IMG/VR virus record: IMGVR_UViG_3300032286_001250
Coordinates: 1 to 52,226 of that record
DNA: 52,226 nucleotides
Direction: 5' to 3' (one strand)
From: a virus
Lineage: Duplodnaviria; Caudoviricetes
Under the pieces are notes generated by a model. That model was not told the origin of the DNA. It saw only the letters and a program-made list of their open reading frames with translations, and did no database searches. Numbering within the stretch: position 1 is the first letter of the stretch; the number at the start of each line of letters is the position of its first letter. Positions 24,580-48,461 of this stretch are shown one piece after another. A program made the position numbers and the translations under genes.

Positions 24580-25062
24580 TTAGGCAGTGAAAATGGTGCC
24601 GGTAGGAGGGAGTGAGCCGACTAAATACTGTGAAAGAACGCGCTTTGGTACTTGCTCGCGGGTGGCATCCAGAGGACTGCTGAGAATTAGCGTTACTTTC
24701 TCGTAGTCGTGGGAGCCGGAGACGCAGGACCAGATTTCGGTGCTGATTGTGTAGGACTCGGAGATAGAGGCGTCCTCGGGGGTGTCGAGGATGACGGTCT
24801 GGACGTCGACGAGCCAGTGGTTGGTGGCGGCTTCGGCGATCAGGTTGACGGTGAGGGGGTTGGGGGTGGTGATCAGGCTGGACTGGCCTGTTTCGCCGCC
24901 GCGGCTGCTGCGGTTGCCGGAGAGGACGAAGGGGGCGAATTTGTAGGCGGTGCCACCGTAGGTGCGGGTTTCGCCGGGGAAGAAGTTCTGGTAGCTCTGC
25001 CCGTTGATGGCGGTGCCATCGCGGAGGGTGAAGGTGATGTAGCTGGCGACGGCGATGTCCAT
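24580..25062 (-). CDS. minor tail protein (gpL-like)
   Basis: Follows the tape measure; YQNFF...Y.FAPF...LSSPLDA..VP.R. Confidence 0.6.
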   Translation of the reverse strand: MDIAVASYITFTLRDGTAINGQSYQNFFPGETRTYGGTAYKFAPFVLSGNRSSRGGETGQSSLITTPNPLTVNLIAEAATNHWLVDVQTVILDTPEDASISESYTISTEIWSCVSGSHDYEKVTLILSSPLDATREQVPKRVLSQYLVGSLPPTGTIFTA

Positions 25063-28000
25063 CAGACTCCAAGCCTCCGGCGAGTATTGACTGAGCGCTG
25101 CAGGCCCTCGTAGGCAAGCAAACGTCCGCGTTCGGCGGCCTGTTGCATACCTTTGCGGTGCTGATCAGTGGTGACGTATTCGACGTTGTTGATGACGCGG
25201 GACTCGAAGCGGACATCGATCGGGCCGGCGGCGGCCATGGCCTGACCGTCCTCGGGGGAGGAGCGGCGGCTCCCACCGAGGGCGCTGCGGGTGCCGGCGA
25301 ACAGGTCTTCGTTGGAGGTGATCTGGCCGGAGGCGCCTGGAGTGAAGAGTTCGGGGCCGTTTTCGCCGACGATGTAGGGGCTGTTGGCGGAGACGGGGCC
25401 GCCTGCGGCGCGGGCTTTGATGCCGAAGAGCTTGCCCAGGCCCCCACCGGGGGCGAAGGATCCGGCCAGGGAGGAGATGCCGCCGAAGATGCCGGCGAGG
25501 CCCATCAACGTGTTGTAGGTGCCCCCCTTCTTCATCTGGTTGACTCCGGCGATGCCCATGCCGATTCCGGCCAGGGCGCCGACTACGCCGCCGATGGCTT
25601 GTTGCAGGCCGCCGAAGTTTTTGGGAATGTCGACGGCGCTCTCGCCGGTCTTGCGGACCACGCTGGAGGTGACCTTGCAGGAGTTGCCCAGGTCCGCCAG
25701 GTTCTGGGTGGCGTTGGCCGCTTCGGTCGCGATGGAGTCCACGGCTTTGCCAGAGCTCACGCCTGGTGTCAAGGGGACGATGCCGTTGGCGGCACCAGCG
25801 ATCTCGGTGGTCTTGCTGGTGATGGCAGTGGTGAGGCCATCGAGGGCGGTCTTGACGCTGCCGAGCGCTGTGGTGTTGGCCTCCTGGGCGATCTTGACCG
25901 GATCCTGGACGCCGAGGAAGTCCTTGAACTGCTTCTCGAGCATCTGCTGGACAGGCTTGAAGGCGGCGTCGAGCATCGAGTTGAGGATGGTGTCGGTGAT
26001 GCCCCTGAGCATTTCCTCCATGGCCTGGCCCGTGTCGCCCCCGGTGAGGGCAGCCTTGATGAAGTTCTTTTGGCCGTCGACGATCGAGCGGCTCACGTTC
26101 TGGATGAGGCTCATCGTGTTAATGAAGGCAGTCGTCTCCTTGTCCATGGCAGCCAGGCTGGCGGCCGAGTCGCGGGTTGCTTTGGCGAAAGCCTGGAACT
26201 CGGCGATCTCGCTTTCCTTCACCAGAAGGCCCTTGGCCTCGAGGTCGAGGCGACGTTCGGTGATCTTGGCTTCGGCTTCGGCACGGCGCTTGCCGTAGTA
26301 ATCGCCCTCGCCGTAGGCCGCTGCCCGCTGGCCCAGGTTGCTGGCGCGGGCCGCCTTGAGCATCAGGTCGTTCCCGGTGGTGGCGTCGTACTTGAGGCGG
26401 GCCAGCTCTGTCGTGACGTCGCTCTTGGCAGAGGCCTTGGCGGCCCTATCGAGGATGGCAAGAATGTCTTTGCCCAAGGGCGAGTCGAGGACTTTCGCCC
26501 CTGCCGGATCCATGCGCAGCTTGGCAATGATGCCTTCAAAATCAGCGGCTTTTTGAAGGTAAATGTTGTTGCCAGCCAGAATGGTTTGGACCTTGGTAAG
26601 GGTCTCGACTTCGCTTTCGCGGGTTTTTCTGGACTCGGAAGCACCGAGGGCTACGAGGTCTTGGACAGCCTTGACCTCTTTCATCCTATTGAGGAGGTCA
26701 GTTTGAGCCTTGTATTGCAGTTCTAACTGTGTGAGGCTCTTGTCACGGCGGGTGTCATAGCTTTTGATGGTGGCATCGTATTGAGCTTGAGTCATCGCGT
26801 TCTCGGGCTTGGCCTTGACCTTGTCGAGTCCTTTGATGAAGTCTTCGCGTTCGGCTGCGATCACCTTCAGTGTTTTCTGGTACTCAGCTGTGAGATTCAC
26901 TTGCTCAGGTGAGACCAACTCGATGTCTTGACCCTTAAGGGCGTTCAGCGCTTTTAGTGTCTCGTCGAGTTGGATGTTCTGGTCGCGGTACTGCTCAAGG
27001 TTGATTTCAGGGAACGCAGCTTTGGCGATGTCCTCGAACGCCTTGGCAGTGTCAGCTTTCCTGATTTCTGCTGTGATTTGGCGGGAGCGTTCCATCGCGG
27101 CCTTGAAGCCGGCCATGGCGTCGTTCATGGCGGAGATGGTCCTCTCACCGATCGAGGCGTCGAAGGTAGGGGCCGTAGGAGCTTCGACCGTGGCGGCGGC
27201 GACGGGTGACATGCCTCGGGCGCCGGCTTTCAGGTACTTGTTGGCCGTAGCCATAAGCTCTGGATGATGCTGTGAACCTCCAGGGAGAGACGGCCAAAGC
27301 CCACGAAGAGCTTTGTCAAGCCCTGCGACATTCCCTTCGGCGAACATCTTCTTGGTTTCTGGGTGCTGCTGAATGGCGTATTGGTAGGCAGCGTTTTGCG
27401 CTGTGTTGAAGTCGCCTGATAGGAACTGATCGGCCATGCCGGGTTTACCCCGCATCCGAAGATCGGTATCAGTGCTCGGGAGAAGCTGGAAGTAACCACG
27501 AGCGCCACTGTAGTTATTGACCGCTTTTGAGCCCATCTTCCCGTAGGCACCTTCAAGGTTGGAAAGGCGTTTCATGTAACCAGTGATGAAGTCATCGCTA
27601 CCAGCGCCGCCAACACCGGGTTGGAACTTGCCGTGGAGGATCTTGTAGACCTTCCCGTCAGGTGTCATGAAGGCTGTCTCGTCTCCGTTGGCAGTGCCGG
27701 GTGTGTTGCTGACCCATTTGGCACCGTTGGCAAGAGTGAGTGCTGCACCCGCACCGAAGGCATAGTCACGACCTTCATGGCTATAACCTTTACGAGGAGC
27801 GCCGATTTCTCCTCCAGCGCTAGTCTGACCTGATGACAATGGCCCGCCATTGACGCGGACGTACTGATCGAGGGCGCCTCTGTCGTAGTAGCCACCACCT
27901 GACTGGGCAATGTGGAAATGAGGTCCCGTACTCGTGGGGCCAGTGTTGCCTTGGATATAAGTGCCATCTGCCATGTCACCCGTTGCGCCGCTGGTTCGGA

Positions 28001-30860: not shown

Positions 30861-31340
30861 TTACCCGAATTCGTCCGGGGGGCGCATCATCGCGGTGAAT
30901 ACGTGTACTGGTATCTCGTGCTTCTTGGCTAGATCAACAAGCAGTAGTTTTGTAGCTTCGTCGGCGCCGACTTTCTTGGCTTTTTCGCCCTCGGGGGTGT
31001 AGTCGGGGAAGGGGAGGAACTCTTTGGGTTGGCGGCTCTTGTTGATCTTGTCACCGAAGTGGGCGAGGGCGACCTCGTGGACCAGGGTGGCCAGGCGGGC
31101 GGCGGTCACGGAGCTGACGTTGGCGCGGGATTGGTCGTCGTCGTCCAGGCGCCGGAGGATGTCCCGCAGCACGTAGATCGGGGTGCGCAGGAACCGGTCT
31201 GGGGGGTAGTCGGGGCCGAGGGGAGAGAGTCGGATGCGGAAGTAGACGCTCTCCCAGTCGGGGTCCGGGCTGTTGAGGAAGTCCTCGCAGTCCTTCAGGA
31301 CTTCTTCTGGGGTGGGTCGCTCTCGGGGGGCTCCGTGTCG
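30861..31340 (-). CDS. tail assembly chaperone gpT part (-1 frameshift extension)
   Basis: The -1 frame is open from the G_GGA_AAC heptamer (31340-31346) through PTPEEVLKDCEDFL...VLRDILRR to the stop at 30861. Confidence 0.8.
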   Translation of the reverse strand, partial: RHGAPRERPTPEEVLKDCEDFLNSPDPDWESVYFRIRLSPLGPDYPPDRFLRTPIYVLRDILRRLDDDDQSRANVSSVTAARLATLVHEVALAHFGDKINKSRQPKEFLPFPDYTPEGEKAKKVGADEATKLLLVDLAKKHEIPVHVFTAMMRPPDEFG

Positions 31341-31885
31341 TTTCCCTCCGGGGCCGGCCAGCCGTCACGCTCCCAGAGGACCAGCTGGAAGATCTCCCCC
31401 ACGAGGTTGAGGGGGGTCTGGTCGGTGTCGGCGTCGGACCAGTCGGGCAGCTTCACCCACTCCTTGGAGCCGGGGAGCTTGGTCTCGCCGCGGAACTGGA
31501 GCAGGAGGGTGGCGAAGGCGCTTTGCTGTTCGGTGGAGCCGGGGGCCTCGTTCTGGATCTCTTCGAGGTCGCTGGCGTAGTCCAGCAGGATCTGGTTGTC
31601 CTGGCGGGAGTCGGTGTCGCTCAGGAGGTCCAGGGCCTGTTGGGTGGCGCTGAGCTTGGTGACGGTGCCGTCTTCTTCGACGGTCTCGGTGTCGGCCAGG
31701 TTCTTGTCCTTGGCGATGCGCTGGGCGAGCTTGATGGTGCGGTAGGTCGACTTCGTTTGAGCGCGGGCCAGTTTCTCGATACCTTTGGCTTCGCCTGGCA
31801 GTAGAGCGTGATAGATCGGGAACCTGAATGGACCGATCTTGTGGTACTCGTCGGTATCGAAGAGGACGCTGGCGTACTTACTCAT
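31295..31885 (-). CDS. tail assembly chaperone gpG
   Basis: Lies between tail tube and tape measure; slippery heptamer near the 3' end. Confidence 0.8.
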   Translation of the reverse strand: MSKYASVLFDTDEYHKIGPFRFPIYHALLPGEAKGIEKLARAQTKSTYRTIKLAQRIAKDKNLADTETVEEDGTVTKLSATQQALDLLSDTDSRQDNQILLDYASDLEEIQNEAPGSTEQQSAFATLLLQFRGETKLPGSKEWVKLPDWSDADTDQTPLNLVGEIFQLVLWERDGWPAPEGNDTEPPESDPPQKKS

Positions 31886-35215: not shown

Positions 35216-36145
35216 TCAGGCCTTTTCCATGACGATGGTGCTCTTGGGGTAGTAGAGCGCCAGGCCACCGATGCGGGAGTGGGCCGCAATGGTGAACTCG
35301 AGGCCGCGCCGCTCGGGAGGGAAGAACTCCAGGGGCTGCGGGATGTGCAGCTGGAGCTTGTCGGGCGAGCGGTCGTAGCAGATGATCCGGTCCTTGGACA
35401 GGAAGCCGAAGGACTTGGTGGCCTCGAGCTCGTTGATCGGCTCGATGCTGGTGATCATCGGGTTGGTGCGGAGGAAGAACTCCATCACCGTGGTGTCCGA
35501 CGTGGTCGAACGGGGCTTGGTCGAGATGATGCGGTACACGTTGTAGGGGACCAACATCGTGTTCGGCATCTCCTTCATGTTGGAGTTCTGGACGAGGCGG
35601 GTGGGGGCCTCGTTCAGCAGTTCCAGCATCTCGTCGGTGGTTGCGGCGTCGAACCAGACGGAGGGGACGAGCTTGTCGACCTGATCGTTGTTGAAGAAGC
35701 CCTTCATGCCCGAGGGGGAGTCACCGAAGTAGGCGATCTCCTGGACTTTCTCCTCGTAGGCGCGGCGCACGGCGTTGGCACGGCGCTGCTCCAGGTTCAT
35801 GTTGGGCACCATGGCGGCGGCCCGCGTTTCCTGGACGGAGTAGGCGAACGAGCCGCCCAGGGAGCGAACCGGGTAGTTCACTTCCTTCCGCAGGACGTCG
35901 GCGCGGGGCAGATCCTGTGCCTTGTCACCGATGATCTTCATCGAACCTTGCTTGTCGAAGATTCGATAGGTGAAGCTATCGGCGCCAGGTCCAACCTCGG
36001 AGGAGATCGGGATCAGGGTGCTGTACTTGATGTCGGCGTACTCGACCTCGAAGGTACGGGAGAGGATGGTCTCCAGTTCCCTCGCGAGAAAGACGCCGAC
36101 CTGATTGTCGAGTCGGGTGTCGTTTGTCATGGGGGTAGCCGTCAT
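35216..36145 (-). CDS. major capsid protein (DUF2184-type HK97 fold)
   Basis: FLARELE...YSVQE.RAA...A.RAYEE...AYFGD...G.KGFFN...GGL..YYP. Confidence 0.88.
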   Translation of the reverse strand: MTATPMTNDTRLDNQVGVFLARELETILSRTFEVEYADIKYSTLIPISSEVGPGADSFTYRIFDKQGSMKIIGDKAQDLPRADVLRKEVNYPVRSLGGSFAYSVQETRAAAMVPNMNLEQRRANAVRRAYEEKVQEIAYFGDSPSGMKGFFNNDQVDKLVPSVWFDAATTDEMLELLNEAPTRLVQNSNMKEMPNTMLVPYNVYRIISTKPRSTTSDTTVMEFFLRTNPMITSIEPINELEATKSFGFLSKDRIICYDRSPDKLQLHIPQPLEFFPPERRGLEFTIAAHSRIGGLALYYPKSTIVMEKA

Positions 36146-36759
36146 CAGACGTCGGCGGAGAAGGTGGCCGCGGGCAGGTCGAACTCGAGGAGAGCCAGAC
36201 CAGCAGCGGAGGTTTCGGACAGCCAGCGGGCGCCCGAGGTGACAGCGATCGTCTTGTTGGCGACCGCGGTTTTGCCCCACCGGCCCAGGTAGGCGGTGGC
36301 GATGGTGCCCGAGTGGTCCACTTTGTAGAAGCGGACGGCGTCACCGAGGCTGACGGCGACGGCGGACCACACCCAGATCACACCCTTGGAGAGGATGTTG
36401 ACCGTTTGGCCACTGGCGTAGCCCATGCGGCCATCGGAGGCCAGGGGGCTGGGGTTGGGGATGTAGGCCTGGCTGCTCGAAACGCCCTCGTGGGTGAGGG
36501 TGTCAACGGTGAGGCCGACGATGAGCGTGGCACCGGTTGCCGGCTCGATCGCGTACTGGTCGAGGCTCGTCGGGTTGTTATCGGTCATGCAGGGCACGCC
36601 GAAGGGGATGGCCGCGCCGCTCTGATTGAAGTAGCTCCGGGTCACATAGGCCTGGAGGTCGGCAATCATGCCCTCGTGGCCCACACCTTCCCGCTGGGGG
36701 TAGGTGCCTTGGGCGCCGATCGGGTTGGCGACGGTAGTGGCGGTGAAAGTAGTTGCCAT
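36145..36759 (-). CDS. capsid cement/decoration protein
   Basis: GMIAD...AIPFG...VNILSKGVIWV; lies between protease and capsid genes. Confidence 0.7.
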   Translation of the reverse strand: MATTFTATTVANPIGAQGTYPQREGVGHEGMIADLQAYVTRSYFNQSGAAIPFGVPCMTDNNPTSLDQYAIEPATGATLIVGLTVDTLTHEGVSSSQAYIPNPSPLASDGRMGYASGQTVNILSKGVIWVWSAVAVSLGDAVRFYKVDHSGTIATAYLGRWGKTAVANKTIAVTSGARWLSETSAAGLALLEFDLPAATFSADV

Positions 36760-36771
36760 GGGAGGTTCTCC

Positions 36772-38055
36772 TTACTTGGTGGCGGTGAGAGGACGCTTCC
36801 AGGCTTCCGCTTGCCGTTGCCGGTAAGCCGAGACCGGCTGGTCGGCGTCGTGACGCTGCGCTCCGCGCAGGGCGGTGCGAAGGCGGGAGGTGTGGTCGAC
36901 CGCGTCGCCGCGCTCGTCTTCACCGTCCTCGTCGTCTTCCTCTTCGTCGTCACCTTCCTCGTCTTCGAGGTCGTCCTCGGAGTCGTAGTGGGCGGCGAGC
37001 AGGCCGTCGACCACGCCGTGGACGTATTCGTCGCTGGCGTCGTCGGAGGGGGAGGAACCGGTCAGGTTCTCGAAGGCTTGGGCGTAGAGGTCGTCGTCGC
37101 CGATGCCGTCGAACTTGAAGTCAGGCTCGAAGGCGGGGGACAGGCGTTGAAGGGTGGAGAGGCGGGCAGCGACCAGTTGGTCGAGCTCCAGGGCGTCGAT
37201 GCGAGAGGCGCCTTCACCGTCGCTGTTCCCGAGAGCGTTCTCGAGGGCGTCGGCGCGGCCTTCGGCGGATTCCTTTTCGGTGGCGAGGGTTTCGAGTGCT
37301 TCCTCCAGCTCGTCAACCCTGGCTTGCAGGGCTTCGTTGTCGGAGGTGGCGGCCTGCAGCTGGCGTCCCATGTCCCTGGCGAAGGACTGGACCGCCGTAG
37401 CTGCTTCCGCGGGCAGATCGATCTCCAGGCCGTCGAGTTTGACGGTAGCCATGAGGGGAGATGCAGTTGGATTGATGGGTGACACCGAGTCGTCCTCGTG
37501 CTCGGCCACGGCGTCAGCCGCATCCATGCGATCGAGGAGAAGTCGAACCTCAGGGCCGGCACGGCCTCGGGGGACGATGGCGATGTGGTTGACCCTGATG
37601 TTGCGCTGGACGCCGTCGTAGGACTCGCCCTCGGGGGTGAATCCGGGGGTGGGGTCGAAGTCGACCTTGTAGCCGGCGGAGACCTCGGTGGCCTCTTTGC
37701 GCTTGATGCGCTCGACGGAATCTGCGTCGGTGACGACGAGAGCCACTTCTACAAAGCCATCAGAGAACTTGACTTGGGAGCCGGATGTTCCCTTGCTGAA
37801 TTCGCTGGTGTTTGTTGCGTCGAGGAGGACCGGGGGGTGGGTCCACGTCACGGGTTTCATGCCGAACGTCGCGAGGGTGTCGGGGTTGCCGACTTCCTCG
37901 GGCGGGCGATATTCCCGGACCTGGGAGCCATCAGCACGCCGGTACAGCTGTGTGCCCGTGCGAGCCGCTCGACACCAGACCCTGAGGTAGCCCTCGGGGG
38001 TGGTTTCGCTCCTGGTGATAGGGGCGAAGTCGTAGCGGCAGACTGATGCGTCCAT
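36772..38055 (-). CDS. prohead protease/scaffold (DUF2213-like)
   Basis: TPEGYL...ARTG.Q.Y...PVT.THP...EVSAGY...QRNIRVNHIAIVPRGRAG, then an acidic coiled-coil scaffold. Confidence 0.88.
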   Translation of the reverse strand: MDASVCRYDFAPITRSETTPEGYLRVWCRAARTGTQLYRRADGSQVREYRPPEEVGNPDTLATFGMKPVTWTHPPVLLDATNTSEFSKGTSGSQVKFSDGFVEVALVVTDADSVERIKRKEATEVSAGYKVDFDPTPGFTPEGESYDGVQRNIRVNHIAIVPRGRAGPEVRLLLDRMDAADAVAEHEDDSVSPINPTASPLMATVKLDGLEIDLPAEAATAVQSFARDMGRQLQAATSDNEALQARVDELEEALETLATEKESAEGRADALENALGNSDGEGASRIDALELDQLVAARLSTLQRLSPAFEPDFKFDGIGDDDLYAQAFENLTGSSPSDDASDEYVHGVVDGLLAAHYDSEDDLEDEEGDDEEEDDEDGEDERGDAVDHTSRLRTALRGAQRHDADQPVSAYRQRQAEAWKRPLTATK

Positions 38056-38342: not shown

Positions 38343-39971
38343 TTATGTAGTGGCCACTGGTGTGCCGAAAGGTTTTTTGCGCTGAGCTGCAAGACGTGCC
38401 TGGCGTTCCGGTTTAAGGGCCATGAATAAGTTTGCTGGTTTAAGTCCCATATTTTTAGCACCTTGTCTAAATAGTGTTGGATCGTTCATGTTGACCTGTT
38501 CCATAACCTGGCGTTGGAATGTATTGGCGTTGGCGGTTAGTATGCGGCGGGTGAGGCCGGGGATACGAGGCTGATCAGCGCCACTAACAAAACGAGAACG
38601 GGGTTTGCGATCATCCCACAAAAGCTCGGTTTCAATCAGATCGTGAAAACGGTTGATGGCTAGTTCGTACTTGTCCCAAGACTTATTGTAATCACGGGCT
38701 TGCGCTTCTACATTGTTAAATACCCCGGAGTATCTTTTCTGAAAATCGGTGCTGTTTAACCCTACAAAGTCTGGAAGTCTGTCCAAGTCGTACATTATGT
38801 TTTCTACGCCATCGCGGTTGTGTGCTACATGGGGAGCGTCATCGATCTGAGTTGAGTATCCAAAATCAACTAACGCTATTCTTTTGGAACGATCATTAGC
38901 CAGTATATTGCCACCATGGATGTCACCGTGTGCCAAGCCTTCTAGGTGTAGCTTGCGGAACTCTCGCAACGCTTTGACTTTGATAATGAGTGGCGCGTTG
39001 CCTAGGTTGTAACCTCCATTGGAATACACATCCGAAATTTCTTTGTAACCCTGCATGTGCCGCAAGGTCAAAGTTTCTCTAGAATAGCCGTCAGCGCTTG
39101 TGCTGCTGTTTATGGCTAAGGGCTCCGGGACGTTGACTCCTGCAGCGTGAGCTTTGCTCAGTCTGTCGAACTCCCATTCGGCCATGCCTATGTCGGGGTC
39201 CGAGTCACGAAATAGCTTAATCCCGTACTTCTCAGAACTGTGAACGAAATATGTACCAAAAGCACCAGCCCCAGCTTGACAACGCGGTGTGGGCACCATT
39301 GCGTCGAATTTAGCTGGGGCTAGTGTCTTTCCCAGGCTGCCACCGCATTTAGCTTGGGTCTCTGCTTGACGTCTAGCATTTATCTTTTCTTGAACTTCCC
39401 ACTTGTGATCGTGGGCTAAAGCCTCGTCAATAATGCGCTGATTCTCTTCGGGAGAGAGCTTGGGTGTATTGCGTGGGTTTTTAGGCGACTGACGCCACTC
39501 GTCCATGCTTTGGAATTTACGTTTTGCCAAATAAGCACCTCCAGCAATAGCTCCAGCGACAAGAGCGATTTTAGCTGCAGTTACGCCTGCGTTGTTAGTG
39601 GTAGTTCCCGCACCCTTACCGCATTTGTAGCCTTTGGGGATGTGTGAAGCCCCGCAGGGCTTGCCTTTGGCGGCCTCGGGGGAATCCTGGCGCAGCCGGG
39701 GTTTGCCTCCGGCGCCGTTGCGGGCGCGGTTGGTGGAGGGGGCTTCAAGGGTTGTGCCCCCCGAGGACGTGTGAGAGATGTCGGGGCCGCCTTTGCTGTA
39801 GATGCCGCGCCGGCGGCGCTCACGGTTCAGCGCGACACGCCGGTCGACTTCGTTGGGCTGGCGGTTGATGGCCGCCTGGTGGCGCACCTTGCGACGGCGG
39901 GCCTTGGGGTGGGTGCGGTAATAGGCCGTGGAGTCGCCCTCGGGGGCGTCGATCGTTACCAGGCCGAGGAC
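38343..39971 (-). CDS. protein-kinase-like domain protein, probably the -1 frameshift extension of 39956..40957
   Basis: GAGAFG, IKLF, WEF, HGDIHGGN and DFG kinase motifs, preceded by CGASHIPKGYKC and a hydrophobic helix; the only early start is a GTG (40025) inside the upstream gene. Confidence 0.75.
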   Translation of the reverse strand, partial: VLGLVTIDAPEGDSTAYYRTHPKARRRKVRHQAAINRQPNEVDRRVALNRERRRRGIYSKGGPDISHTSSGGTTLEAPSTNRARNGAGGKPRLRQDSPEAAKGKPCGASHIPKGYKCGKGAGTTTNNAGVTAAKIALVAGAIAGGAYLAKRKFQSMDEWRQSPKNPRNTPKLSPEENQRIIDEALAHDHKWEVQEKINARRQAETQAKCGGSLGKTLAPAKFDAMVPTPRCQAGAGAFGTYFVHSSEKYGIKLFRDSDPDIGMAEWEFDRLSKAHAAGVNVPEPLAINSSTSADGYSRETLTLRHMQGYKEISDVYSNGGYNLGNAPLIIKVKALREFRKLHLEGLAHGDIHGGNILANDRSKRIALVDFGYSTQIDDAPHVAHNRDGVENIMYDLDRLPDFVGLNSTDFQKRYSGVFNNVEAQARDYNKSWDKYELAINRFHDLIETELLWDDRKPRSRFVSGADQPRIPGLTRRILTANANTFQRQVMEQVNMNDPTLFRQGAKNMGLKPANLFMALKPERQARLAAQRKKPFGTPVATT

Positions 39972-40957
39972 TTTCCCGGCGTGAGCGCGGCGTCGCGGCG
40001 GCTGGTTTTGCCCGAGCACTTCCACTTGGCGCGGGAGAGGCAGAGGGGGGTGTTGCGCTCGGCGCCGGAGCAGTCGTAGCCCTCGGATTTCATGTCGCCG
40101 AAGGAACGGGCGCAGTAGTTATCGCCCTTGGAGGTGCCGGGGGCGATGGTGTAGCCCTTGGCGCCGTAGCGGACCTTGTTTTTGCGGCCGGTCTTGGGGT
40201 TGGTGACGACCTTGGTGTACTTCTTGCCGTCCTCGGTGTCCTTCTGAGCTTGGGCCTTTCTCAAACCTGAGGAGGTTGGGACGCAGTTGGGTACTTCGCG
40301 CTTGCCCTTGCGCTTCGTGCCAGCCTGAACGTAGCCCTCCCAGCAAGCATCGTTGCGCGAGATGGGGAAACTGCGGAGTAGCCGGGGGGTGAGGAGAGCG
40401 TCGCCTCGTGGGGTGTCTGAGAAGCGGGGCTTGCGGTAGCCGGGTTCGTAGCGGCGGCGCAGCTTCTCGATGGTGAGGTTATGCCGGCGCACACCGCTGC
40501 GGACGGAGGCACGGGCGGCTTTGCCGGACTTGTGCATGGCCGAAGCCACGGCGACGGTGCGCTCGATCTCGGCCTGGGCTGCCTTGGAGATGGCCTGCTC
40601 CGCTTCGCGGTTGGCGGACTGAGCAGCCTTGTGGAGGCGTTCAGTCTTGGACGGTGGACGCATCGTGGCGAGGGGGCCGTCCTCAGGGAAGCGCATCGAA
40701 GGTGGCTTGGCCGTGGCGCGGTGGACGGCCTCGGTGACACCCTGCTGTGCGGCGCGGCGGGCACGGCCGGGAGCGTTGAAGATGGCCTTGCGGGATCCCT
40801 TGAACAAGAGCGCACCGCCGACGGCGCCTGCGGTGAGGCCGGCGGCCAGGGCCGCTCGGCGAGGGATGGCGCCACCCTTGTGGCATGTCTTTCCCTGGGC
40901 GATGGCGCCCTGGCCACACTTCAGGTCGAGGCGGAGGGTGGAGGGGGTCAGGCTCAT
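39956..40957 (-). CDS. basic modular head-region protein
   Basis: RLD-LKCGQGAIAQGKTC, hydrophobic helix, CWEGY..PNCVP and YCARS motifs; ends just after G_GGA_AAG. Confidence 0.75.
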   Translation of the reverse strand: MSLTPSTLRLDLKCGQGAIAQGKTCHKGGAIPRRAALAAGLTAGAVGGALLFKGSRKAIFNAPGRARRAAQQGVTEAVHRATAKPPSMRFPEDGPLATMRPPSKTERLHKAAQSANREAEQAISKAAQAEIERTVAVASAMHKSGKAARASVRSGVRRHNLTIEKLRRRYEPGYRKPRFSDTPRGDALLTPRLLRSFPISRNDACWEGYVQAGTKRKGKREVPNCVPTSSGLRKAQAQKDTEDGKKYTKVVTNPKTGRKNKVRYGAKGYTIAPGTSKGDNYCARSFGDMKSEGYDCSGAERNTPLCLSRAKWKCSGKTSRRDAALTPGKSSAW

Positions 40958-41397
40958 TGCAGGTTGGTCAGCTTGTAAAGCGTGGAGTCGATCAGCTTCT
41001 GGATCGTGTCGATCTCGTTCTGGATCTCGCTGTCGTTTGCAACAGCGCCGCGGGTGTTGCGGACGTAGTTGCTCAGGGCCGTGACGAAGGGGATCGGCTG
41101 GCCTGTGGGGATGGAAGGGCCGTCGGGGTAGCTGTCGAGGACGCCGTATTTGCCCTGGTAGGCCTCGATCAGACCGTCAGTGAGTTCCTCGAGCTCGGAG
41201 TAGAAGGTGCCGAGGGCTGAATGCTGGCTAAAGCTGCGGCTCTTCAGGTGGAGGAGGTGGCCTGTGGTGACGGCGTCGAGCAGGGTTTTGAAGAACTCCC
41301 CGGCGGCCTGGGGGTCGGTGTTGCCGGCCTCGGGGGAATCGTGGCGGGTGGTGGTGGGGGCGAAGCCGGTGGCCCAGACGGAGGAGGTGCGTGTCAC
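40954..41397 (-). CDS. ferritin/Dps-like four-helix protein (DUF5856-like)
   Basis: HLLHL.SRSFSQHSALGTFYSEL..LTD.LIEAYQGKYG...QNEID.I...LYKL. Confidence 0.75.
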   Translation of the reverse strand: MTRTSSVWATGFAPTTTRHDSPEAGNTDPQAAGEFFKTLLDAVTTGHLLHLKSRSFSQHSALGTFYSELEELTDGLIEAYQGKYGVLDSYPDGPSIPTGQPIPFVTALSNYVRNTRGAVANDSEIQNEIDTIQKLIDSTLYKLTNLQ

Positions 41398-41407
41398 AGC
41401 GGTGCCC

Positions 41408-42847
41408 TCAAGCGCCGATGCGTTGGAGTGATTGAGTCACTTCGCGGGCGTGCTTGTGGCGGAGGGCCTGCATCTCACTGCGTGAGGCGCCTTTGGTACG
41501 TGCTCGCTTCAGCTCGGCTTCTTGGCGCGGGCCGAGTTTACTCATCGCAGATTGAATCTTCGCGTTATTGGCTCGTCCTGCTTGATATTGACCGCGAATA
41601 GCCTTGCCGGTCTTATAGCCCAGAGCTTCGGATGCACCTCCCAGTGCGCCAACACCAGCGCCGTAGGCAGTACCGCCTGCCGCACCAAGGAGGGCACCCT
41701 TCACAGCACCGCGACCACCGCCGGTCAATGCGCCGATCGCAGCACCCCCGAGGGCACCACCGATAGATCCACCAATCGCGCCCTGTTTCACCCCGAGTTT
41801 CGCCATCTGCTTCACGCTGGATGGGTCTACACCACGCTTCACGTAGTAGGGATGGACGGTGTTAGTAAGTCCACCGAGCGCTCCACCACCTGTCCACCTG
41901 TTCTGTGTAGGGCCTCCGCCTGCACCTTTGTGGCACTTCTCGCCTTTGGAGATGGCGCCTGCACCACACTTGATGTCTTCGCGGATCAGGCCGTCGAAGA
42001 CGGCGGCGTCAAGGGTGAAGCCGTCGGCGTACATGGAGTCTGCCCACGGGCTCTTAATGCTCCCGCCAGGGCCGAGCTTCGGTTTGGGCATCGGCTTGTT
42101 GATACGGCGGTTGACCATGCGCTCTTTGTACAGCTTGTTCTTGCCGACTTCGAGACCGACTCGGGCTTTGCGTGCCCCGGTGGCGAAGCCGCTGCGGGCG
42201 CGGCCGAGACCTGAGCTGGCGGTGCGGCGGGCCATGCCCATACCGGTGCGGGCTTTGCGCATGCCGGTGGAACCGGCGGTGCGCAGGCGGGGGGCAGCTT
42301 TGCGCAGGGCAGAGCCGGCACGACGGAAGGCGCCGCTGCGGTGTCCGCCGTAGGCCAGGGCGGCGACGCCTCCGGCGATGGCGGCCCCGGTGGCCACCCG
42401 GCGTGCGGTGCTGCCGTTGTTCTGGCTCTGGCCGCCGGAGGAGCGGAAGTCTTGGCGGAGGGCGTCCTCGGTGTCGAGGCGGGCACGGATGTAGGCCTTG
42501 GGCTTGTTCTGGATCCCGAGGTCGCAGGCGTCGAGGTACTCCTGCGGGGAGAGGGCGTCGTTGTTCATGCGGGAGTTTTTGCGACCGGGGTTGTAGAGCT
42601 CGCCAGGTCCGGCGGAGGTGTCACCTTCCTTCTTGCCCGTGCAGGGTTTGCCAGCAGCGCAGGCGGAGCAGGAGCCGTCCTTGACGGCCTTGCGGCCACG
42701 ACGACCGCGGCGTCCTTTGGACATGGGGGGCATGTCTTCGGAGCCTTCGCGCATCTGCTCGTCGGGTGATTCTGTGGACTCGTCGTCCGGGGATTCACCG
42801 GCCTCGGGGGCTGAAGGCTTGGGGCGACGGCGCATTGCGGCGGGCAT
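41408..42847 (-). CDS. basic modular head-region protein with glycine zipper
   Basis: RLD, RQD and RED sites; CGAGAISKGEKC; two Gly/Ala hydrophobic stretches. Confidence 0.7.
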   Translation of the reverse strand: MPAAMRRRPKPSAPEAGESPDDESTESPDEQMREGSEDMPPMSKGRRGRRGRKAVKDGSCSACAAGKPCTGKKEGDTSAGPGELYNPGRKNSRMNNDALSPQEYLDACDLGIQNKPKAYIRARLDTEDALRQDFRSSGGQSQNNGSTARRVATGAAIAGGVAALAYGGHRSGAFRRAGSALRKAAPRLRTAGSTGMRKARTGMGMARRTASSGLGRARSGFATGARKARVGLEVGKNKLYKERMVNRRINKPMPKPKLGPGGSIKSPWADSMYADGFTLDAAVFDGLIREDIKCGAGAISKGEKCHKGAGGGPTQNRWTGGGALGGLTNTVHPYYVKRGVDPSSVKQMAKLGVKQGAIGGSIGGALGGAAIGALTGGGRGAVKGALLGAAGGTAYGAGVGALGGASEALGYKTGKAIRGQYQAGRANNAKIQSAMSKLGPRQEAELKRARTKGASRSEMQALRHKHAREVTQSLQRIGA

Positions 42848-42883: not shown

Positions 42884-43759
42884 TTATCGCTGTAAAGGAG
42901 TGGGGGTAATCTGCTCAAAACTTGCTGGCTTGTTCAGCGGTACGGTTTCAGGGAGACGTACAGCCTTCGCAACATCTTTCTTATGTGTTTCACGCATCTT
43001 CTCGTATTCGGGATCCATTGCATTGGTGTCTTCATCCCAGGGGGCCAAATAGCACCGGCAGCGGGGATGGATGGGAACTTTGACGTCTCCGCGTTTGTAG
43101 ATGTGGCCAGCACGAGGGGCACAGTATGGGCAGCTCCTGTCATCTGCAGTCGCGTAGTACATAACCTGCGAGATGCCGCGAGCTGCGTAGTAGGTGTCTG
43201 AAGCGTTGTTGTAGGCGCGAAGCGCCTCGGTGCGGACGATGACGTTGGCGCGGGACTTGACGATGCCGAGGCGGCTGCGCATGTCCTGGACCATGGCGTC
43301 AGTGGGCCGGCCTTCGGCAATGCCTTGGGCGACGGTGGTGGCAGCGGTTTCGGCGAAGGTCTGGCCGTGCTTGGCGAGGTAGCCACGGGCCTGCTTCGCA
43401 GCCTCGACGGTGGCCTCGATGGGAATGGAGACGTCGATGCGGCCGTGGCCGGGAAAAGCGGCCTCGGTGAGATCGTTGGCAATGGCCAGGCCTTGACCTT
43501 GGGCAGAGAGGGCGAGGTTTCGGAAGATTCGGTCATAGGCGTCGACCCGATCGGGGTTGTAGGCCGGGACCAGGAGGCGGAACTCGCGCAGCAGGGACAG
43601 GTTGCGCTGGGCCGGGTCGATGATGCCGGCCTTCATCTGGGCGCGGACACGGATCACCAGGCGGCGGAACGCTGCATCGAGGACACCGTTGAGGAGGCGG
43701 ATGGTGCCGTCCTCGGTGGTGCGCAGGAGTTCGTTGTAGCGCTCAATCAGGCTGGACAC
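42884..43759 (-). CDS. minor head protein (MuF / SPP1 gp7 family)
   Basis: RANVIVRTE..RAYN...DDRSCPYC...PIHPRCRC. Confidence 0.9.
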   Translation of the reverse strand: MSSLIERYNELLRTTEDGTIRLLNGVLDAAFRRLVIRVRAQMKAGIIDPAQRNLSLLREFRLLVPAYNPDRVDAYDRIFRNLALSAQGQGLAIANDLTEAAFPGHGRIDVSIPIEATVEAAKQARGYLAKHGQTFAETAATTVAQGIAEGRPTDAMVQDMRSRLGIVKSRANVIVRTEALRAYNNASDTYYAARGISQVMYYATADDRSCPYCAPRAGHIYKRGDVKVPIHPRCRCYLAPWDEDTNAMDPEYEKMRETHKKDVAKAVRLPETVPLNKPASFEQITPTPLQR

Positions 43760-46593
43760 TTGGCAGCCTGGTAGTGGCGCTTAGCTGCTAGGAACATGCG
43801 CACACGGGGTGGTAGCTCATCCTCAGCGTCACCACGGATCATATTGCCGATGTACTCGAACTGGTTGTCCGGGATCTCAGTGAACTTACCCTGGTTTTTC
43901 AGTGCCCAGAGTTTGTCGCCTTTCAGATTGGGAAGAGCCTTAAAGCCCATCTTCTCATAGATTGATTTGCGCTTGCCGCCTTTGCCGTCAGCTTTGTGCG
44001 GCACAGCGAACAAGAAAGCGTCATCCGGTAGCATATCGAGCTGAGCACTATACATCGCTTTTGTGGTCTTGATCAGCTGCTTGGCTTGTTTGCTTGGGAT
44101 GTCTGTGGCGGCGTCGTATTTTGTATCCACAGTGAATCCAAGGCCGAATTGCTGAAACTTCCCGACGTCAGCTTTGTGCTCAGCGCCGAAGGTTAGCAGG
44201 CTGTCACCCACGGAGCCGATAGAGATGTGCCCACCACTAGGTGTGGACCATGTGGAGAAATTATTGTCGATGTCTACAGCTCTGATTTGAGCTCCCTGGG
44301 CTTTTAGTGCCATGTGGGCTGCCCCCAGCTTGGCATCACCTACAAGCCTACTGACAGGGTCACGGAAGTTCTCGGGGAGCTTGGCGATAGCCTGCTTCAC
44401 TTGTTTGGCTGAGAGACCTTGTATGGCTTGTTGACTCAGGTTAGGGACAAGTGTTGAACGATTCTTGTACACAAACAAGCTGCCTGCCGTGAGAGCAGCG
44501 GCCCCGGTGACAGCAACTACAGCCGCGGCTGTCTTTACTTTTGAACGTGTGGAACTTTCTGGTGCGCTGGGCTGTGAAGGTTCTCTCTGACTGGGCGCAG
44601 CACTGGATGAACCTGGGGTTTCACCGCATTTGTGGCCTTTAGGGATGAAGCTGCGACCACAGGGCTTGCCCGTGTGCTGCGCTGCAGTCTGGAAATCCAG
44701 GCGACGTTGGACCTCCAGGAAGGAACGCACTCGTGGGGGGAGAGCGTCGCCGCGGAGGTGGGCCTGGTCGTAAGCCGTTTCTGCAGAGCCACGACTCCCG
44801 TATATGCGCTGTTTGTCAAGTCCTTGTACCCGCTCAAGTGAGCTCACAGCTTGAGCACGAGTCTCGCGCCTGGTTACATTCTTAATGGTGACTGTTTTAT
44901 TAAAATTGATGCCGCTCAAGTCGTAGTATTGGCGACCTGACGGATTGGCTAGCTGCTGGCGCTCCCAAAGTCTAATTTTACTCTCTTTCCCTGGTACTGC
45001 GTATTCGAGGCCGGGTTGGCGTTGGATAATGCGGAATGCCTCAGCTATAGATGTTACTTTCTGGCCAGACCAGTCGGCAGCAGCTGTAAGAGCTTCGCGA
45101 TCAGTAATGGCGAAACTATTGACGCCTCTTACCTTTGTGTTGAAGAAGGCTTTGTTTACAACCACCCCAGCCGAGGATCCGGGGACGGTGAGCCGGCTAT
45201 TCATAACGGCTGCTACGTGTCGTGCATGGGCGTATTCAGCATCTTGCAGGAGTTGGGCGCGATTTCGTGCGCTGCCTTCTAATTTTGTATCTAGTTTCAA
45301 TTCATCCGCAGTACGCGCATAGAACTTGTCGAATTGACTGAGAGTATCGTTATACACACGCTTGGCTTCGCCGTTAATCACCTCTGTCCTATTCTGGAAC
45401 AATAGATAGCGTTCGACTGTGTCGACGGCGTCGCTGCGCATGCTGTCTGGGAGATGCACACCGCTCTCGGTGAGAACACTGTTTGCGAATGCTCGGCGAG
45501 TGCGCTGCCGCGTTAGATCTACGCCACGCTGTACGGCCAGTAGCTGGAGTGCGCTTGATTGATCTTGAATTTGGTCTGCCAACGCACGGACAACTGCATG
45601 ATCGGTGCTGAGCCGACTGATGTTACTACGATCGCGCAAGCTGAAAGTGTCAGCCAGGAATTCTTTGGTGGCATCGCCGCTGTACACAATACGATTCGTA
45701 GGCTTGCCGAAACGATCTTTCACGCGAATGTCAAAGAGCTTTCGTGTGCTTTCACGCAACCATTCCTGACGAGTTACGCCTGGAGTGTTTTGAGCAAGGC
45801 GCACTTCTTCGTTGATGTGGCTGCTGATTGCTGCGGAGTAGCTCGTCGTCGTCGAAATGGTGCGGGGGAGCGGGGCGCCTGGCCGCTCAATCTGAGCCAG
45901 CATCGAGGCTGGACCAACACTGTTGGTGTGACGCAGGCTTTGGGCGATGGAAGCTGCGCTCTGTCGCCCTCGGAGGCGGGTGTTTTCCCGTGGGCCGAGG
46001 GCGCTGGGATCGAAACGGCGGACCACGCCCATGACGGCGTTCTCTCCGGTATCCATTGCCCGACTGAAAGTGTCGAAAGCTGCCTTGTTAAAGGGTTGGT
46101 AGACCCGATCCCTATAAAAAGGGATATTGGCGAGACCACGGTGTGCAGCAATACCACCAGCGACGGCGGCTGTGATACCTACAATTAAACCTGTACGCTT
46201 CAGTAGCTCTTTCTGCTTCTCTTTCTTGTCTTGAATGTTGCCGGGAGTGGCTTTGACCACGCCGCGGACGATGGCGCGGCGGCCGGCGTCTACCTCGGCG
46301 ACGCTGCCTTTCTTGATGCCCTTGATGACGCGGCGGAAGCCACGCTCGATTGAGGCGGCTCCGCCGACGGGGTCGGTGGTGGCGGCGCGGAGGTGGTTGT
46401 CGGTGCCCTCACCCTTGAGGCGGCAGTCCCAGTTGGGTGGGATGCAGCGGTTGCCACAGAGTTTGTTGGGTGGGGTGCATTTGACGTTGCGGCGCGTCTT
46501 GCCGGAACGGCTGAGGCCGGGGGCGTCGAGGCGGGCCTGGGCGGCCAGGAAGGTGGCGGCGCGAATCTCGGAGCGATCTGGTGTTGTGGTCAT
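43747..46593 (-). CDS. two-module head-region polyprotein (C-terminal GNAT-like domain)
   Basis: ATG at 46593 overlaps the portal stop (ATGA); two RLD + Cys-motif + hydrophobic-helix modules. Confidence 0.75.
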   Translation of the reverse strand: MTTTPDRSEIRAATFLAAQARLDAPGLSRSGKTRRNVKCTPPNKLCGNRCIPPNWDCRLKGEGTDNHLRAATTDPVGGAASIERGFRRVIKGIKKGSVAEVDAGRRAIVRGVVKATPGNIQDKKEKQKELLKRTGLIVGITAAVAGGIAAHRGLANIPFYRDRVYQPFNKAAFDTFSRAMDTGENAVMGVVRRFDPSALGPRENTRLRGRQSAASIAQSLRHTNSVGPASMLAQIERPGAPLPRTISTTTSYSAAISSHINEEVRLAQNTPGVTRQEWLRESTRKLFDIRVKDRFGKPTNRIVYSGDATKEFLADTFSLRDRSNISRLSTDHAVVRALADQIQDQSSALQLLAVQRGVDLTRQRTRRAFANSVLTESGVHLPDSMRSDAVDTVERYLLFQNRTEVINGEAKRVYNDTLSQFDKFYARTADELKLDTKLEGSARNRAQLLQDAEYAHARHVAAVMNSRLTVPGSSAGVVVNKAFFNTKVRGVNSFAITDREALTAAADWSGQKVTSIAEAFRIIQRQPGLEYAVPGKESKIRLWERQQLANPSGRQYYDLSGINFNKTVTIKNVTRRETRAQAVSSLERVQGLDKQRIYGSRGSAETAYDQAHLRGDALPPRVRSFLEVQRRLDFQTAAQHTGKPCGRSFIPKGHKCGETPGSSSAAPSQREPSQPSAPESSTRSKVKTAAAVVAVTGAAALTAGSLFVYKNRSTLVPNLSQQAIQGLSAKQVKQAIAKLPENFRDPVSRLVGDAKLGAAHMALKAQGAQIRAVDIDNNFSTWSTPSGGHISIGSVGDSLLTFGAEHKADVGKFQQFGLGFTVDTKYDAATDIPSKQAKQLIKTTKAMYSAQLDMLPDDAFLFAVPHKADGKGGKRKSIYEKMGFKALPNLKGDKLWALKNQGKFTEIPDNQFEYIGNMIRGDAEDELPPRVRMFLAAKRHYQAAKCPA

Positions 46594-48461
46594 GCGTACA
46601 CCTCCCAACCTGCTTTGAGGGAATCGGCTTCGACCTCGGGGATAGGTGTCAGTCCTGCCACAGTTTGTCGAGGCCAGAGTTTCTCGAGTCCGCTGCGGGC
46701 GGCGCGGAGGGTGGCGAAGCCGGTGACATAGGGACCTGGGACCAGCTCGTCTGCTCGTGCGAACGACGCCCGGTAGAGGCGATAGGCGCGGGTGCGCTGC
46801 GGGCCAAGCACCAGGAGGGGAGCGTCGGCTGAGCTGTCGGTGCGCTGGCCATCGGGGCCGACGAGGTAGCCCGCCCGGACATCGCCGGCAGTGTGCGTCA
46901 CCCGGATGCGCAGGCCTCGGACTTCGTAGACATCGAAAGCGTCCTGCTTCGCGTTCGGGTCGGGCTCTGCCGGCAGGATGCCTCCACCGTTGGTGGGGTC
47001 TGGCTCCGCCGGAGCTGCTCCGCCCTCGGGGGGCTGTGGGGCGCTGGGATCAGCCGCAGGCTGAGGGTTGAGCATGGCGTCCTGCTGCGCCTGCATTGAG
47101 AGCAGGGAGTTCTGGAACTCCGCGTCGGCCTGGGTGGCCAGCTGCTCGGTGACCGCCTCGTTGAGGGTGGTTTCGGTGCTGTAGCTGGTGCCGCCGAAGC
47201 GGGACTCGCGCACTTCGATCGCCTTGAGGACACCGGAGTTGATGTATTGGACGTCGGTGGCGGCCGTGTTGGCCCGCAAGTTGGCCTTGTCCTCTTCAGT
47301 CTGGGTGAAGACGGAGGGGAAGCTGACGGCCCAGGACTCGGGGGGCTTGCCGCGGGTCGGGCCTTCCCGGCTGAGGAGGATGTAGGTGAAGGCCTCGGTG
47401 AGGGCCGGGCGGCAGTAGACCTCTTGCCATTGCTCGACGATCGAGGCCCAGACGCGCTCCTCGAAGCGGCCCTCCTTGCCCAGGCCGCCGGGCGACTCGC
47501 CCATGAGGATCGAGGCGGGCCAGCCCGTCTCGGCCTGCAGGGCGGTGACGAAAGGGTCGGTGGCCGAAGCGATGTTGCCTAGGGCGCGGCTCAAGAAGGT
47601 GACGTCCTCCTCGGTGTCGATCGCCATGCCCCCATAGAGGGAGCGGGAGAGGATGTTGGCCTCCAGGCGTTTGCGCATCCCCTCCTCGTTGCCCTGGGCG
47701 AGGCGGTTGAACAGGCCTGGGATCTTGTGGACGAACAGGTCGGCGTCGGAGACCATGTTCTCAAGGCCGGCCAGGGCCGATTCGTAGCGCTTATAGGCGT
47801 GCCACAAGAGCTGCAGGACTGACTGGCCCCAGCCTGTGTTACGGGTGCGCAGCTGCCAGGGCAGATACAGACCGTCGAAACGTGCTACACGACTGTGATG
47901 CACATGCACATCGACATACGCTTCGCGTTGTGCGTCGGTCAGCTTCTGACTGGTGGTGATCCGGTAGTGCTCAGGCTTGGAGTAATCCGCTGAGGTGAGC
48001 TCCGTCGGGATCAGCTCCCAGCGGGAGAGGGGGATGAAACCCCGGATGGCCCGGATGCGGGAGGTGTTGACCGGTTCACTCTCGGGGAGCCCGTCGTCGA
48101 TCAGCATCACCAGGCCGGCGCCGCCGTAGAGGCGCTGGAGCTTGACGACCTCGGAGTAGGCCTGGTGGAAGTTCGTGTTCTTCAGGAACTCCTCGACCTT
48201 GGTGATCACCTCGTTGTCGGTGTTGTCACCCCCGAGGGTGATGGTGACGCGGTGCCGGAGCATCTCGTCGGCGACGCTATCTACCAGGCGCCGGGGAAGT
48301 CCGTTGAGATAAAGCTGCTCAAGTTCTACGCTGCTGAGCAGCTGTTGTACATTAACTTGTGTCGCTGTAGTCCGGTCTTTCCCGGTTGTACCCATTCCCG
48401 TCAATACATTGACTAAGGAACCGTCGTTCCGGTAATCTTCAGTAGGAGCGACGGTGGGCAC
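46590..48461 (-). CDS. portal protein (DUF1073-type) with C-terminal extension
   Basis: N.LTG.G...LY....RRLVD..ADEM.R...RLYGGAG...VHHSRV..FDG...WGQSVLQ...P..ILMGESPGGL; follows terminase. Confidence 0.88.
   Translation of the reverse strand: MPTVAPTEDYRNDGSLVNVLTGMGTTGKDRTTATQVNVQQLLSSVELEQLYLNGLPRRLVDSVADEMLRHRVTITLGGDNTDNEVITKVEEFLKNTNFHQAYSEVVKLQRLYGGAGLVMLIDDGLPESEPVNTSRIRAIRGFIPLSRWELIPTELTSADYSKPEHYRITTSQKLTDAQREAYVDVHVHHSRVARFDGLYLPWQLRTRNTGWGQSVLQLLWHAYKRYESALAGLENMVSDADLFVHKIPGLFNRLAQGNEEGMRKRLEANILSRSLYGGMAIDTEEDVTFLSRALGNIASATDPFVTALQAETGWPASILMGESPGGLGKEGRFEERVWASIVEQWQEVYCRPALTEAFTYILLSREGPTRGKPPESWAVSFPSVFTQTEEDKANLRANTAATDVQYINSGVLKAIEVRESRFGGTSYSTETTLNEAVTEQLATQADAEFQNSLLSMQAQQDAMLNPQPAADPSAPQPPEGGAAPAEPDPTNGGGILPAEPDPNAKQDAFDVYEVRGLRIRVTHTAGDVRAGYLVGPDGQRTDSSADAPLLVLGPQRTRAYRLYRASFARADELVPGPYVTGFATLRAARSGLEKLWPRQTVAGLTPIPEVEADSLKAGWEVYA

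Follow-up and report, generated by a model that had tools for sequence, protein, structure and literature searches.

A conserved −1 frameshift site in the head-gene block of a cyanophage-like virus, predicted to append a kinase to a modular carrier protein

The window analysed here is the whole of a linear IMG/VR virus record (IMGVR_UViG_3300032286_001250; 52,226 bases, estimated as 75% complete, about 60% G+C) from an uncultured virus described as cyanophage-like, whose nearest cultured relative by portal protein is the cyanosiphovirus S-CBS4 (39.5% identity). In its block of head genes, the open reading frame (ORF) of a protein of 333 residues, here ORF-A, overlaps at its 3′ end a second ORF in the −1 frame, here the −1 ORF, which ends in a kinase-like domain. 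The overlap very probably contains a genuine and conserved −1 programmed frameshift, yielding a fusion of 871 amino acids in which the kinase is carried on the 333-residue head-module protein. The frameshift is strongly supported because the heptamer and the relation of the frames are conserved, because many of the downstream ORFs are start-less and because some relatives carry the two parts fused in frame. Three hallmarks of programmed −1 frameshifting are thus found together: a slippery heptamer in phase, a downstream −1 ORF without initiation signal of its own, and conservation of both in diverged relatives.

On the minus strand (region 39800-40100) ORF-A ends with CTC ACG CCG GGA AAG TCC TCG GCC TGG TAA, and the heptamer G_GGA_AAG is read in the X_XXY_YYZ phase at the codons Pro327-Gly328-Lys329, 4 codons before the stop (Table 1). 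The translation of the −1 frame around the site is GKVLGLVTIDAPEG, with AGK followed by VLGLVTIDAPEG. A slip after Lys329 with resumption at Val19 of the −1 ORF would produce a protein of 329 + 542 = 871 residues, with the predicted junction peptide LTPGK/VLGLVTID. The preliminary description of this DNA had put the heptamer at 39971-39977 near the end of this ORF with the −1 frame open to 38343, the fusion at about 870 residues and the same peptide at the junction, and the minus-strand reading confirms each of these.

In the proposed mechanism, most ribosomes translating ORF-A would terminate at TAA 39958 and release the 333-residue protein, while a fraction would slip back one base on G_GGA_AAG, with the tRNAs re-pairing from GGA/AAG to GGG/AAA, and would continue in the −1 frame. 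The fusion would then comprise residues 1-329 of ORF-A, the linker VLGLVTID-APEG, a phrog_6437 module, a Cys motif with a hydrophobic helix, and a Kdo/RIO-like kinase. Since the kinase unit lacks a translation start, it would be produced solely as a C-terminal extension. By analogy with the gpG/gpGT pair of lambda, whose heptamer is also G_GGA_AAG, the shifted product would be the minor one. If the units are head cargo, the frameshift would fix a low kinase-to-carrier ratio, in a manner that can be likened to Gag-Pol.

The heptamer by itself proves nothing. GGGAAAG occurs 10 times on both strands of the window against 8.62 ± 2.97 expected from shuffles, 37 of 100 shuffles reach 10 copies, and the string is therefore not enriched. 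The site counts as more than a chance occurrence only because of the comparative evidence. A second in-phase G_GGA_AAG is found within ORF-A itself (40895..40889, minus strand) at the codons Q-G-K, and a −1 ORF of 78 residues (40683..40919) spans it; relatives read EGEKC at that position, and this copy was rejected as a chance match, which makes it a useful negative control.

The comparison was based on 33 viral loci retrieved with a profile of the kinase ORF. They comprise 26 loci of frameshift type, five in-frame fusions (L009, L012, L016, L017 and L018) and two that are cut off and begin inside the kinase gene (L015 and L026). The frameshift-type loci come from many samples, and their kinases share 48-67% identity with that of the window. 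The C-terminal module of ORF-A lies just upstream of the kinase side in 28/33 loci; in 24 of these 28 the frame of the module ends as RRD.(A)LTPGK(SSA(W))* with the heptamer in phase, and the kinase side follows in −1 as GKV.GL.R.DAP.G..GKPCG. Two further loci (L006 and L029) have the same cassette behind other upstream modules. All 26 loci with frames offset by −1 carry the in-phase G_GGA_AAG, and offset frames without the heptamer were found in 0 of the 33. The 0-frame stop comes directly after the heptamer in 7 of the 26, after 3 codons in 13 and after 4 codons in 6; a stop placed directly after the heptamer may help slippage. In the alignment of distinct junctions, GCCGGGAAAG is invariant in 22/22, third codon positions of both frames included, while the mean column identity is 78%. 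Conservation of a slippery heptamer at this position in related phages, which had been proposed as a check, is thus borne out.

The in-frame fusions point in the same direction. The heptamer is in phase in none of the five: the junction of L016 is TPLTVLGL, and in L017 and L018 RKD is joined directly to the Cys motif. L009, which differs by one extra G (GCCGGGGAAAG), has LTPGKVVGL, and in P0009, an in-frame protein from the database, the sequence is LTPGKVLAL. Exactly the peptide expected across the shifted junction is thus encoded by both of them within a single frame. Judged from the sequences, both sides of the junction are real coding sequence.

The N-termini of the 120 database homologues listed, of 161 found for the −1 ORF at E<=0.001, were also classified. 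Fifteen are in-frame fusions, and 33 begin with a spurious N-terminus of the form M/V-(E/A)-(V/L)-L-(G/R)-Q...AGKV, as results when the end of the upstream module is read in −1. In 59 the call starts at an internal Met just past the hydrophobic helix (M(M)SMEEW). Another 7 start with a short N-terminal stretch of their own, which in some is a genuine M-x-LTP leader, and 6 do not match the anchor pattern. In the window the public gene call (P0003, 387 aa) likewise begins the kinase at Met174, and a conserved coding stretch of about 465 nt (39507-39971) is left without a called gene; it holds the phrog_6437 module and the Cys motif with its helix.

These calls bear on the simplest alternative, namely two genes, with the kinase started either at GTG 40025 or GTG 40019 (an overlap with ORF-A of about 70 nt) or at Met174, and with the heptamer kept only as the coding of P-G-K / A-G-K in a recently shared cassette. 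Such an arrangement is unlikely, although the public call at Met174, the 59/120 homologues called from the equivalent Met, the GTGs located at −48 and −42 from the heptamer, and a lineage that has the heptamer with a −1 ORF of only 31 residues speak for it. In 11/26 loci the −1 frame contains no ATG, GTG or TTG from the preceding −1 stop to the conserved Cys motif (GKPCG); that stop often lies 4-5 codons before the heptamer, and in one more locus the sole candidate is a GTG located past the site. In the window, the −1 ORF has no canonical start ahead of its conserved modules other than the two GTGs. There, as wherever GTGs occur in relatives, they arise where conserved 0-frame K-W-K/R-C codons are read in −1, and in the window they are not preceded by a purine-rich Shine-Dalgarno (SD) sequence. 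A start at Met174 would leave untranslated the phrog_6437 module (E 3.3e-20) and the Cys motif with its helix, although residues 112-163 of the −1 ORF are conserved in 9/9 aligned homologues, and the Met is not universal, being absent in P0007 and P0021. Nor would two genes account for third-position bases of the heptamer that are constant across 22 distinct junctions.

A coupled variant, in which ribosomes would terminate at the end of ORF-A and reinitiate close by in −1 at a non-canonical codon, so that the kinase would be a separate but coupled product, is very unlikely. Coupling is common in phage late operons, and the 0-frame stop is always 0-4 codons from the junction. However, no ATG, GTG or TTG is conserved near the stop, the CTG and ATC of the window are replaced by CTA or other codons in relatives, the L-T-P of the leader described below would be lost, and the invariant in-phase heptamer would be left without explanation.

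Least likely of all is an artefact or a decaying gene, that is, an assembly indel in the G/A run that splits one in-frame gene, or a fusion that is dying. The one extra G that puts L009 in frame speaks for it. Against it stand the same −1 offset in 26 loci of such diversity, downstream ORFs that are intact with invariant catalytic motifs, and the sequencing reads as assembled in Logan contigs. The region 38343..40957 was compared with contigs from three runs of one study (X1, X2 and X3): the contig of X1, which may come from the source sample, matches it fully with 0 gaps; a variant in X2 and one in X3, the latter with 22 substitutions in 706 nt, span the site ungapped with the heptamer unchanged. 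The contigs of the three runs, in which rare variants can be lost, thus show no indel at the site, and the joining error once named as grounds for refuting the frameshift is not seen in them. A contig of run X2 joins 39673 to 39938, an in-frame skip of 39674-39937 (264 nt, 88 codons) that corresponds to the phrog_6437 module. The skipped unit lies between two DAPEG/SPEA-type linkers, and the skip looks like gain or loss of a module by recombination at linker repeats.

Several observations weigh against the frameshift and have to be set beside the evidence above. The two GTGs of the window could in principle start the −1 ORF, and the internal Met calls leave room for a separate kinase start. 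Since the kinase or the motif itself served in part to find the loci, the sample has an ascertainment bias. Seven contigs have the heptamer without cargo, six of one lineage (L041, L045, L048, L049, L052 and L069) and L063, with a −1 ORF of 30-31 residues; in 6 of the 7 the 0 frame continues for 13 codons, and the cassette stands at the end of an ORF-A-type module. They appear to be relics whose cargo has been lost. Since the heptamer outlasts the cargo in this lineage, shared descent or spread of the cassette adds to its invariance, and may account for part of it.

A stimulatory RNA structure was looked for and not found. At the junction RNAalifold gave only weak pairs (−10 kcal/mol, covariation term −0.15) and no covarying structure, and the 90 nt past the site fold no better than shuffles (−28.1 against −28.7 kcal/mol, z 0.19). 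The small hairpin of the preliminary description, CGCCC-CCGA-GGGCG, is present 22 nt past the heptamer and pairs in 93.6% of cells, but with 0 compensatory changes; it encodes the conserved D-A-P-E/K-G, which is found also at junctions without frameshift, and its spacer is longer than the usual 5-9 nt. The idea that it stimulates slippage was rejected for want of support. Nor was any SD-like sequence found to be conserved ahead of the site, GGAG about 14 nt upstream being present in only a subset of relatives. No tRNA genes were found in the window, and a phage-encoded tRNA-Lys that could tune slippage is accordingly absent. A strong stimulatory element is not needed at lambda-type sites. The heptamer itself is highly shift-prone in Escherichia coli according to the available part of PMC5009743.

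A scan with the exact motif returned 39 viral contigs, 15 of them new. The new ones include, besides the seven with short −1 ORFs, four long −1 ORFs, one that runs off its contig, one chance match (L046, rejected) and two that are tail-chaperone-like. Among the long ones, L037 is similar to the window, L050 has only phrog_6437 (107 aa), and L058 and L061 have other cargo after the Cys motif with its helix. In the tail-chaperone-like pair (L067:2467 and L068, complement of 293) the 13-base context ACGCCGGGAAAGT is found at an apparently ordinary tail-chaperone frameshift, where the ORF ends DDEDGETPGKS* and is followed by a −1 extension of 82 residues.

The two partners of the predicted fusion are both modular. 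ORF-A begins with the leader MSLTPSTLRLD, followed by a Cys motif (KCGQGAIAQGKTCHKG), a Gly/Ala-rich hydrophobic helix, a basic region and two small modules, CWEGY...PNCVP at about residues 200-240 and a Cys-rich one at about 242-327 that ends in KWKCSGKTSRRD. Marine cyanophages, roseophages and vibriophages encode the small modules as hypothetical proteins on their own, and the C-terminal one matches proteins of cyanophages and roseophages. The −1 ORF has, in this order, VLGLVTID-APEG, the phrog_6437 module, a second Cys motif with helix and the protein-kinase-like domain. In other phages (P60, Syn5, S-CBS2 and others) phrog_6437 is a free-standing protein of about 86 residues. In relatives of 790-957 residues NlpC/LRAT-like, phrog_6437 and kinase modules are combined in one protein, whereas in the window the modules are spread over several ORFs. 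The Cys motif, C-G-x-G/S-x-I-x3-5-C-x-K-G, recurs on the minus strand at 46414-46458 (953-aa ORF), 41924-41968 (479-aa ORF), 40874-40918 (ORF-A) and 39612-39656 (−1 ORF), and in the last two it is followed by a Gly/Ala-rich hydrophobic helix.

The appended module had been taken for a kinase alone. A kinase is indeed encoded, but the phrog_6437 module and the Cys motif with its transmembrane helix, both of which precede it, had been missed. By its Pfam scores and its motifs, the C-terminal part of the −1 ORF is assigned to the Kdo/RIO/APH protein-kinase-like superfamily. Three families score above their cutoffs (in bits, cutoff in brackets): Kdo, PF06293, 28.9 (21.3); APH, PF01636, 28.5 (23.2); and ABC1, PF03109, 23.1 (22.9). 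Matches to kinases in the Protein Data Bank are weak. In the 9/9 aligned homologues G252/G254/G257 (GxGxFG), K270, E285, H366-G-D-I-H-x-G-N373 and D387-F-G389 are invariant. The 2.6-kb region gave no match among GenBank phage DNA. A tblastn search with the −1 ORF matched 11 Synechococcus phage records, at residues 25-111 only and not in the kinase part. A scan of bacterial genomes gave 1 partial match, in a contig of a Synechococcus metagenome-assembled genome (MAG), which is a weak hint of the host.

Table 1. Coordinates of the frameshift site, its products and neighbouring genes in the window
Feature	Position	Strand	Remarks
ORF-A, 0-frame product	39956..40957	−	333 aa
Slippery heptamer G_GGA_AAG	39977..39971	−	X_XXY_YYZ phase of ORF-A; Pro327-Gly328-Lys329
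ORF-A 0-frame stop TAA	39958..39956	−	4 codons past the heptamer
Candidate −1 starts GTG 40025 and GTG 40019	40019..40027	−	within conserved 0-frame K-W-K-C codons of ORF-A
−1 ORF	38343..40025	−	longest from GTG 40025; 560 aa, stop at 38343
−1 extension reached by slip	38343..39971	−	542 aa, from Val19 of the 560-aa ORF
Hairpin CGCCC-CCGA-GGGCG	39948..39935	−	22 nt past the heptamer
phrog_6437 module	39699..39935	−	residues 31-109 of −1 ORF; E 3.3e-20
Second unit head	39525..39692	−	junction RLRQD-SPEAAKG, Cys motif GKPCGASHIPKGYKCGKG, Gly/Ala-rich helix AAKIALVAGAIAGGAYLA
Kinase part (Kdo/RIO/APH-type protein-kinase-like fold)	38343..39506	−	387 aa from Met174 in public call
Portal	46590..48461		
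Unassigned protein	43747..46608		953 aa
MuF-like (PF04233)	42884..43759		
Unassigned protein	41408..42847		479 aa
DUF5856	40954..41397		147 aa
DUF2213 protease/scaffold	36772..38055		
Major capsid protein	35216..36280		
Tape-measure-sized ORF	25062..30833		1923 aa

ORF-A and the −1 ORF are placed in the head block, between the portal/MuF genes and the prohead protease. The site was accordingly rejected as part of a tail assembly chaperone pair of G/GT type, the window having a G/T-like pair of its own, and its earlier designation as a non-tail site is upheld. The candidate tail pair (31295..31885 and 30861..31364, minus strand) consists of an acidic-tailed ORF of 196 residues and a −1 segment of 167 residues; its in-phase G_GGA_AAC at 31346 precedes the stop by 17 codons, and the pair is located upstream of the 1923-aa ORF.

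A short leader is shared by several proteins of this block. The pattern M-[TSA]-L-T-P-x-x-[LIV]-R-x-D was found at 44/1760 Met starts on the coding strand against 0/747 on the reverse strand, and it precedes varied cargo: the Cys motif with its helix, the CWEGY module, a YPSAYANAW module and phrog_6437. In the window it is present, on the minus strand, in ORF-A (40925-40957), in the 953-aa ORF (46608 region; MTTTP...ARLDAPG) and in the major capsid protein, where it runs from Met46 (36145 region) as MTATPMTNDTRLD. Capsid homologues start with M-(T/P)-x-x-I-R-N-D, for example M-T-T-E-I-R-N-D, in 13/15 distinct relatives, and thus retain only a short N-terminal peptide ending in R-x-D. The units of relatives are linked at junctions of the R-x-D-A-P-E-G type. 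The frameshift junction itself, RRD-AALTPGK/VLGLVTID-APEG, is an internal copy of the leader. Its L-T-P is encoded in frame 0 and its L-x-x-x-D in frame −1, so that the leader is restored only by the shifted reading.

The leader may be a targeting or a cleavage signal. The position of the genes between portal/MuF and protease, together with the shared leader and the linkers, suggests that the leader-bearing units are probably head-internal or ejected cargo. The same leader and linkers suggest that the DUF2213 protease may cut at R-x-D during maturation; the results of a literature search held nothing on the cleavage specificity of DUF2213. R-x-D also occurs in the protease/scaffold protein (RMD/A near residue 178 and RHD/A near the C-terminus), matches that were set aside as the motif is too short to count. 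A Gag-Pol-like strategy can tentatively be drawn from these elements, and it is considerably more doubtful than the frameshift. Leader-marked cargo would enter the procapsid, and the DUF2213 protease would cleave it at R-x-D. The −1 frameshift within the internal leader copy would append the kinase, or other cargo in relatives, to the carrier, and a small and fixed number of kinases would be packaged and injected with the DNA.

The Gag-Pol proteins of retroviruses and totiviruses show how an enzyme that exists only as the −1 extension of an abundant structural or carrier protein is kept at a low copy number per particle. The arrangement described here would be similar in having an enzyme as −1 extension of a carrier with a protease gene next to it; there is, however, no homology, and packaging and cleavage are putative here. 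In head genes, −1 frameshifting produces a C-terminally extended minor form in T7 (10A/10B) and, reportedly, of the major head protein of Lactobacillus phage A2. In both of these a shell protein is extended by a short domain, whereas here a non-shell modular protein would be extended by an enzyme. The tail assembly chaperone frameshift is conserved in tailed phages. In lambda it gives two products with a common N-terminal part in a ratio of 30:1, as given in the available part of PMC5009743. The present site would likewise give two products sharing their N-terminal part, but the lambda extension is a T domain of about 100 residues and not a multi-module enzyme cargo of 542, and the lambda-type pair has a small acidic G and lies just upstream of the tape measure gene, while ORF-A lies between portal/MuF and prohead protease.

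For the cargo, one comparison is with the polyvalent proteins (Iyer et al. 2017), which the available part of PMC5512222 describes as multi-module proteins encoded beside portal/MuF genes, some with Ser/Thr-type kinases, and thought to be packaged and injected. One kinase clade among them lacks the C-terminal subdomain and is found in elements of Verrucomicrobia/Bacteroidetes (PMC5512222). The virion/MuF gene neighbourhood fits, and relatives join several modules in one polypeptide; unlike the polyvalent proteins, the units in the window form individual ORFs that each have a leader, and recoding would join one of them. The word 'frameshift' has 0 occurrences in the part of PMC5512222 that was available. 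The nearest precedent for leader-tagged cargo is found in the capsid-targeting peptides of T4, where the prohead protease (gp21) removes short N-terminal peptides from IPI-III and Alt (PMC9958956, available part). The literature search, which covered main texts, found no description of such a frameshift; the available part of PMC10885494 lists pairs of MuF-like and ADP-ribosyltransferase genes among the 'false positives' of software, that is, predicted joins. The mechanism is classical. What is new is that it lies in an array of head-module cargo, that its product would be an enzyme with recoding as its only route of synthesis, and that the site sits within a linker resembling the leader.

Conserved recoding sites outside the tail chaperone pair are few in tailed phages. 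The one described here is conserved in dozens of uncultured cyanophage-like genomes and would control the sole route of expression of an enzyme effector. Gene callers start the kinase wrongly, at spurious −1 codons or at the internal Met, and consequently annotations lack the predicted 871-residue product together with some 0.5 kb of coding sequence. If the fusion is packaged, it would be a phage counterpart of the control of stoichiometry by Gag-Pol and a natural means of dosing an injected kinase. Moreover, the shared leader and the R-x-D junctions provide a testable handle on how cargo is targeted and processed in heads with DUF2213 proteases.

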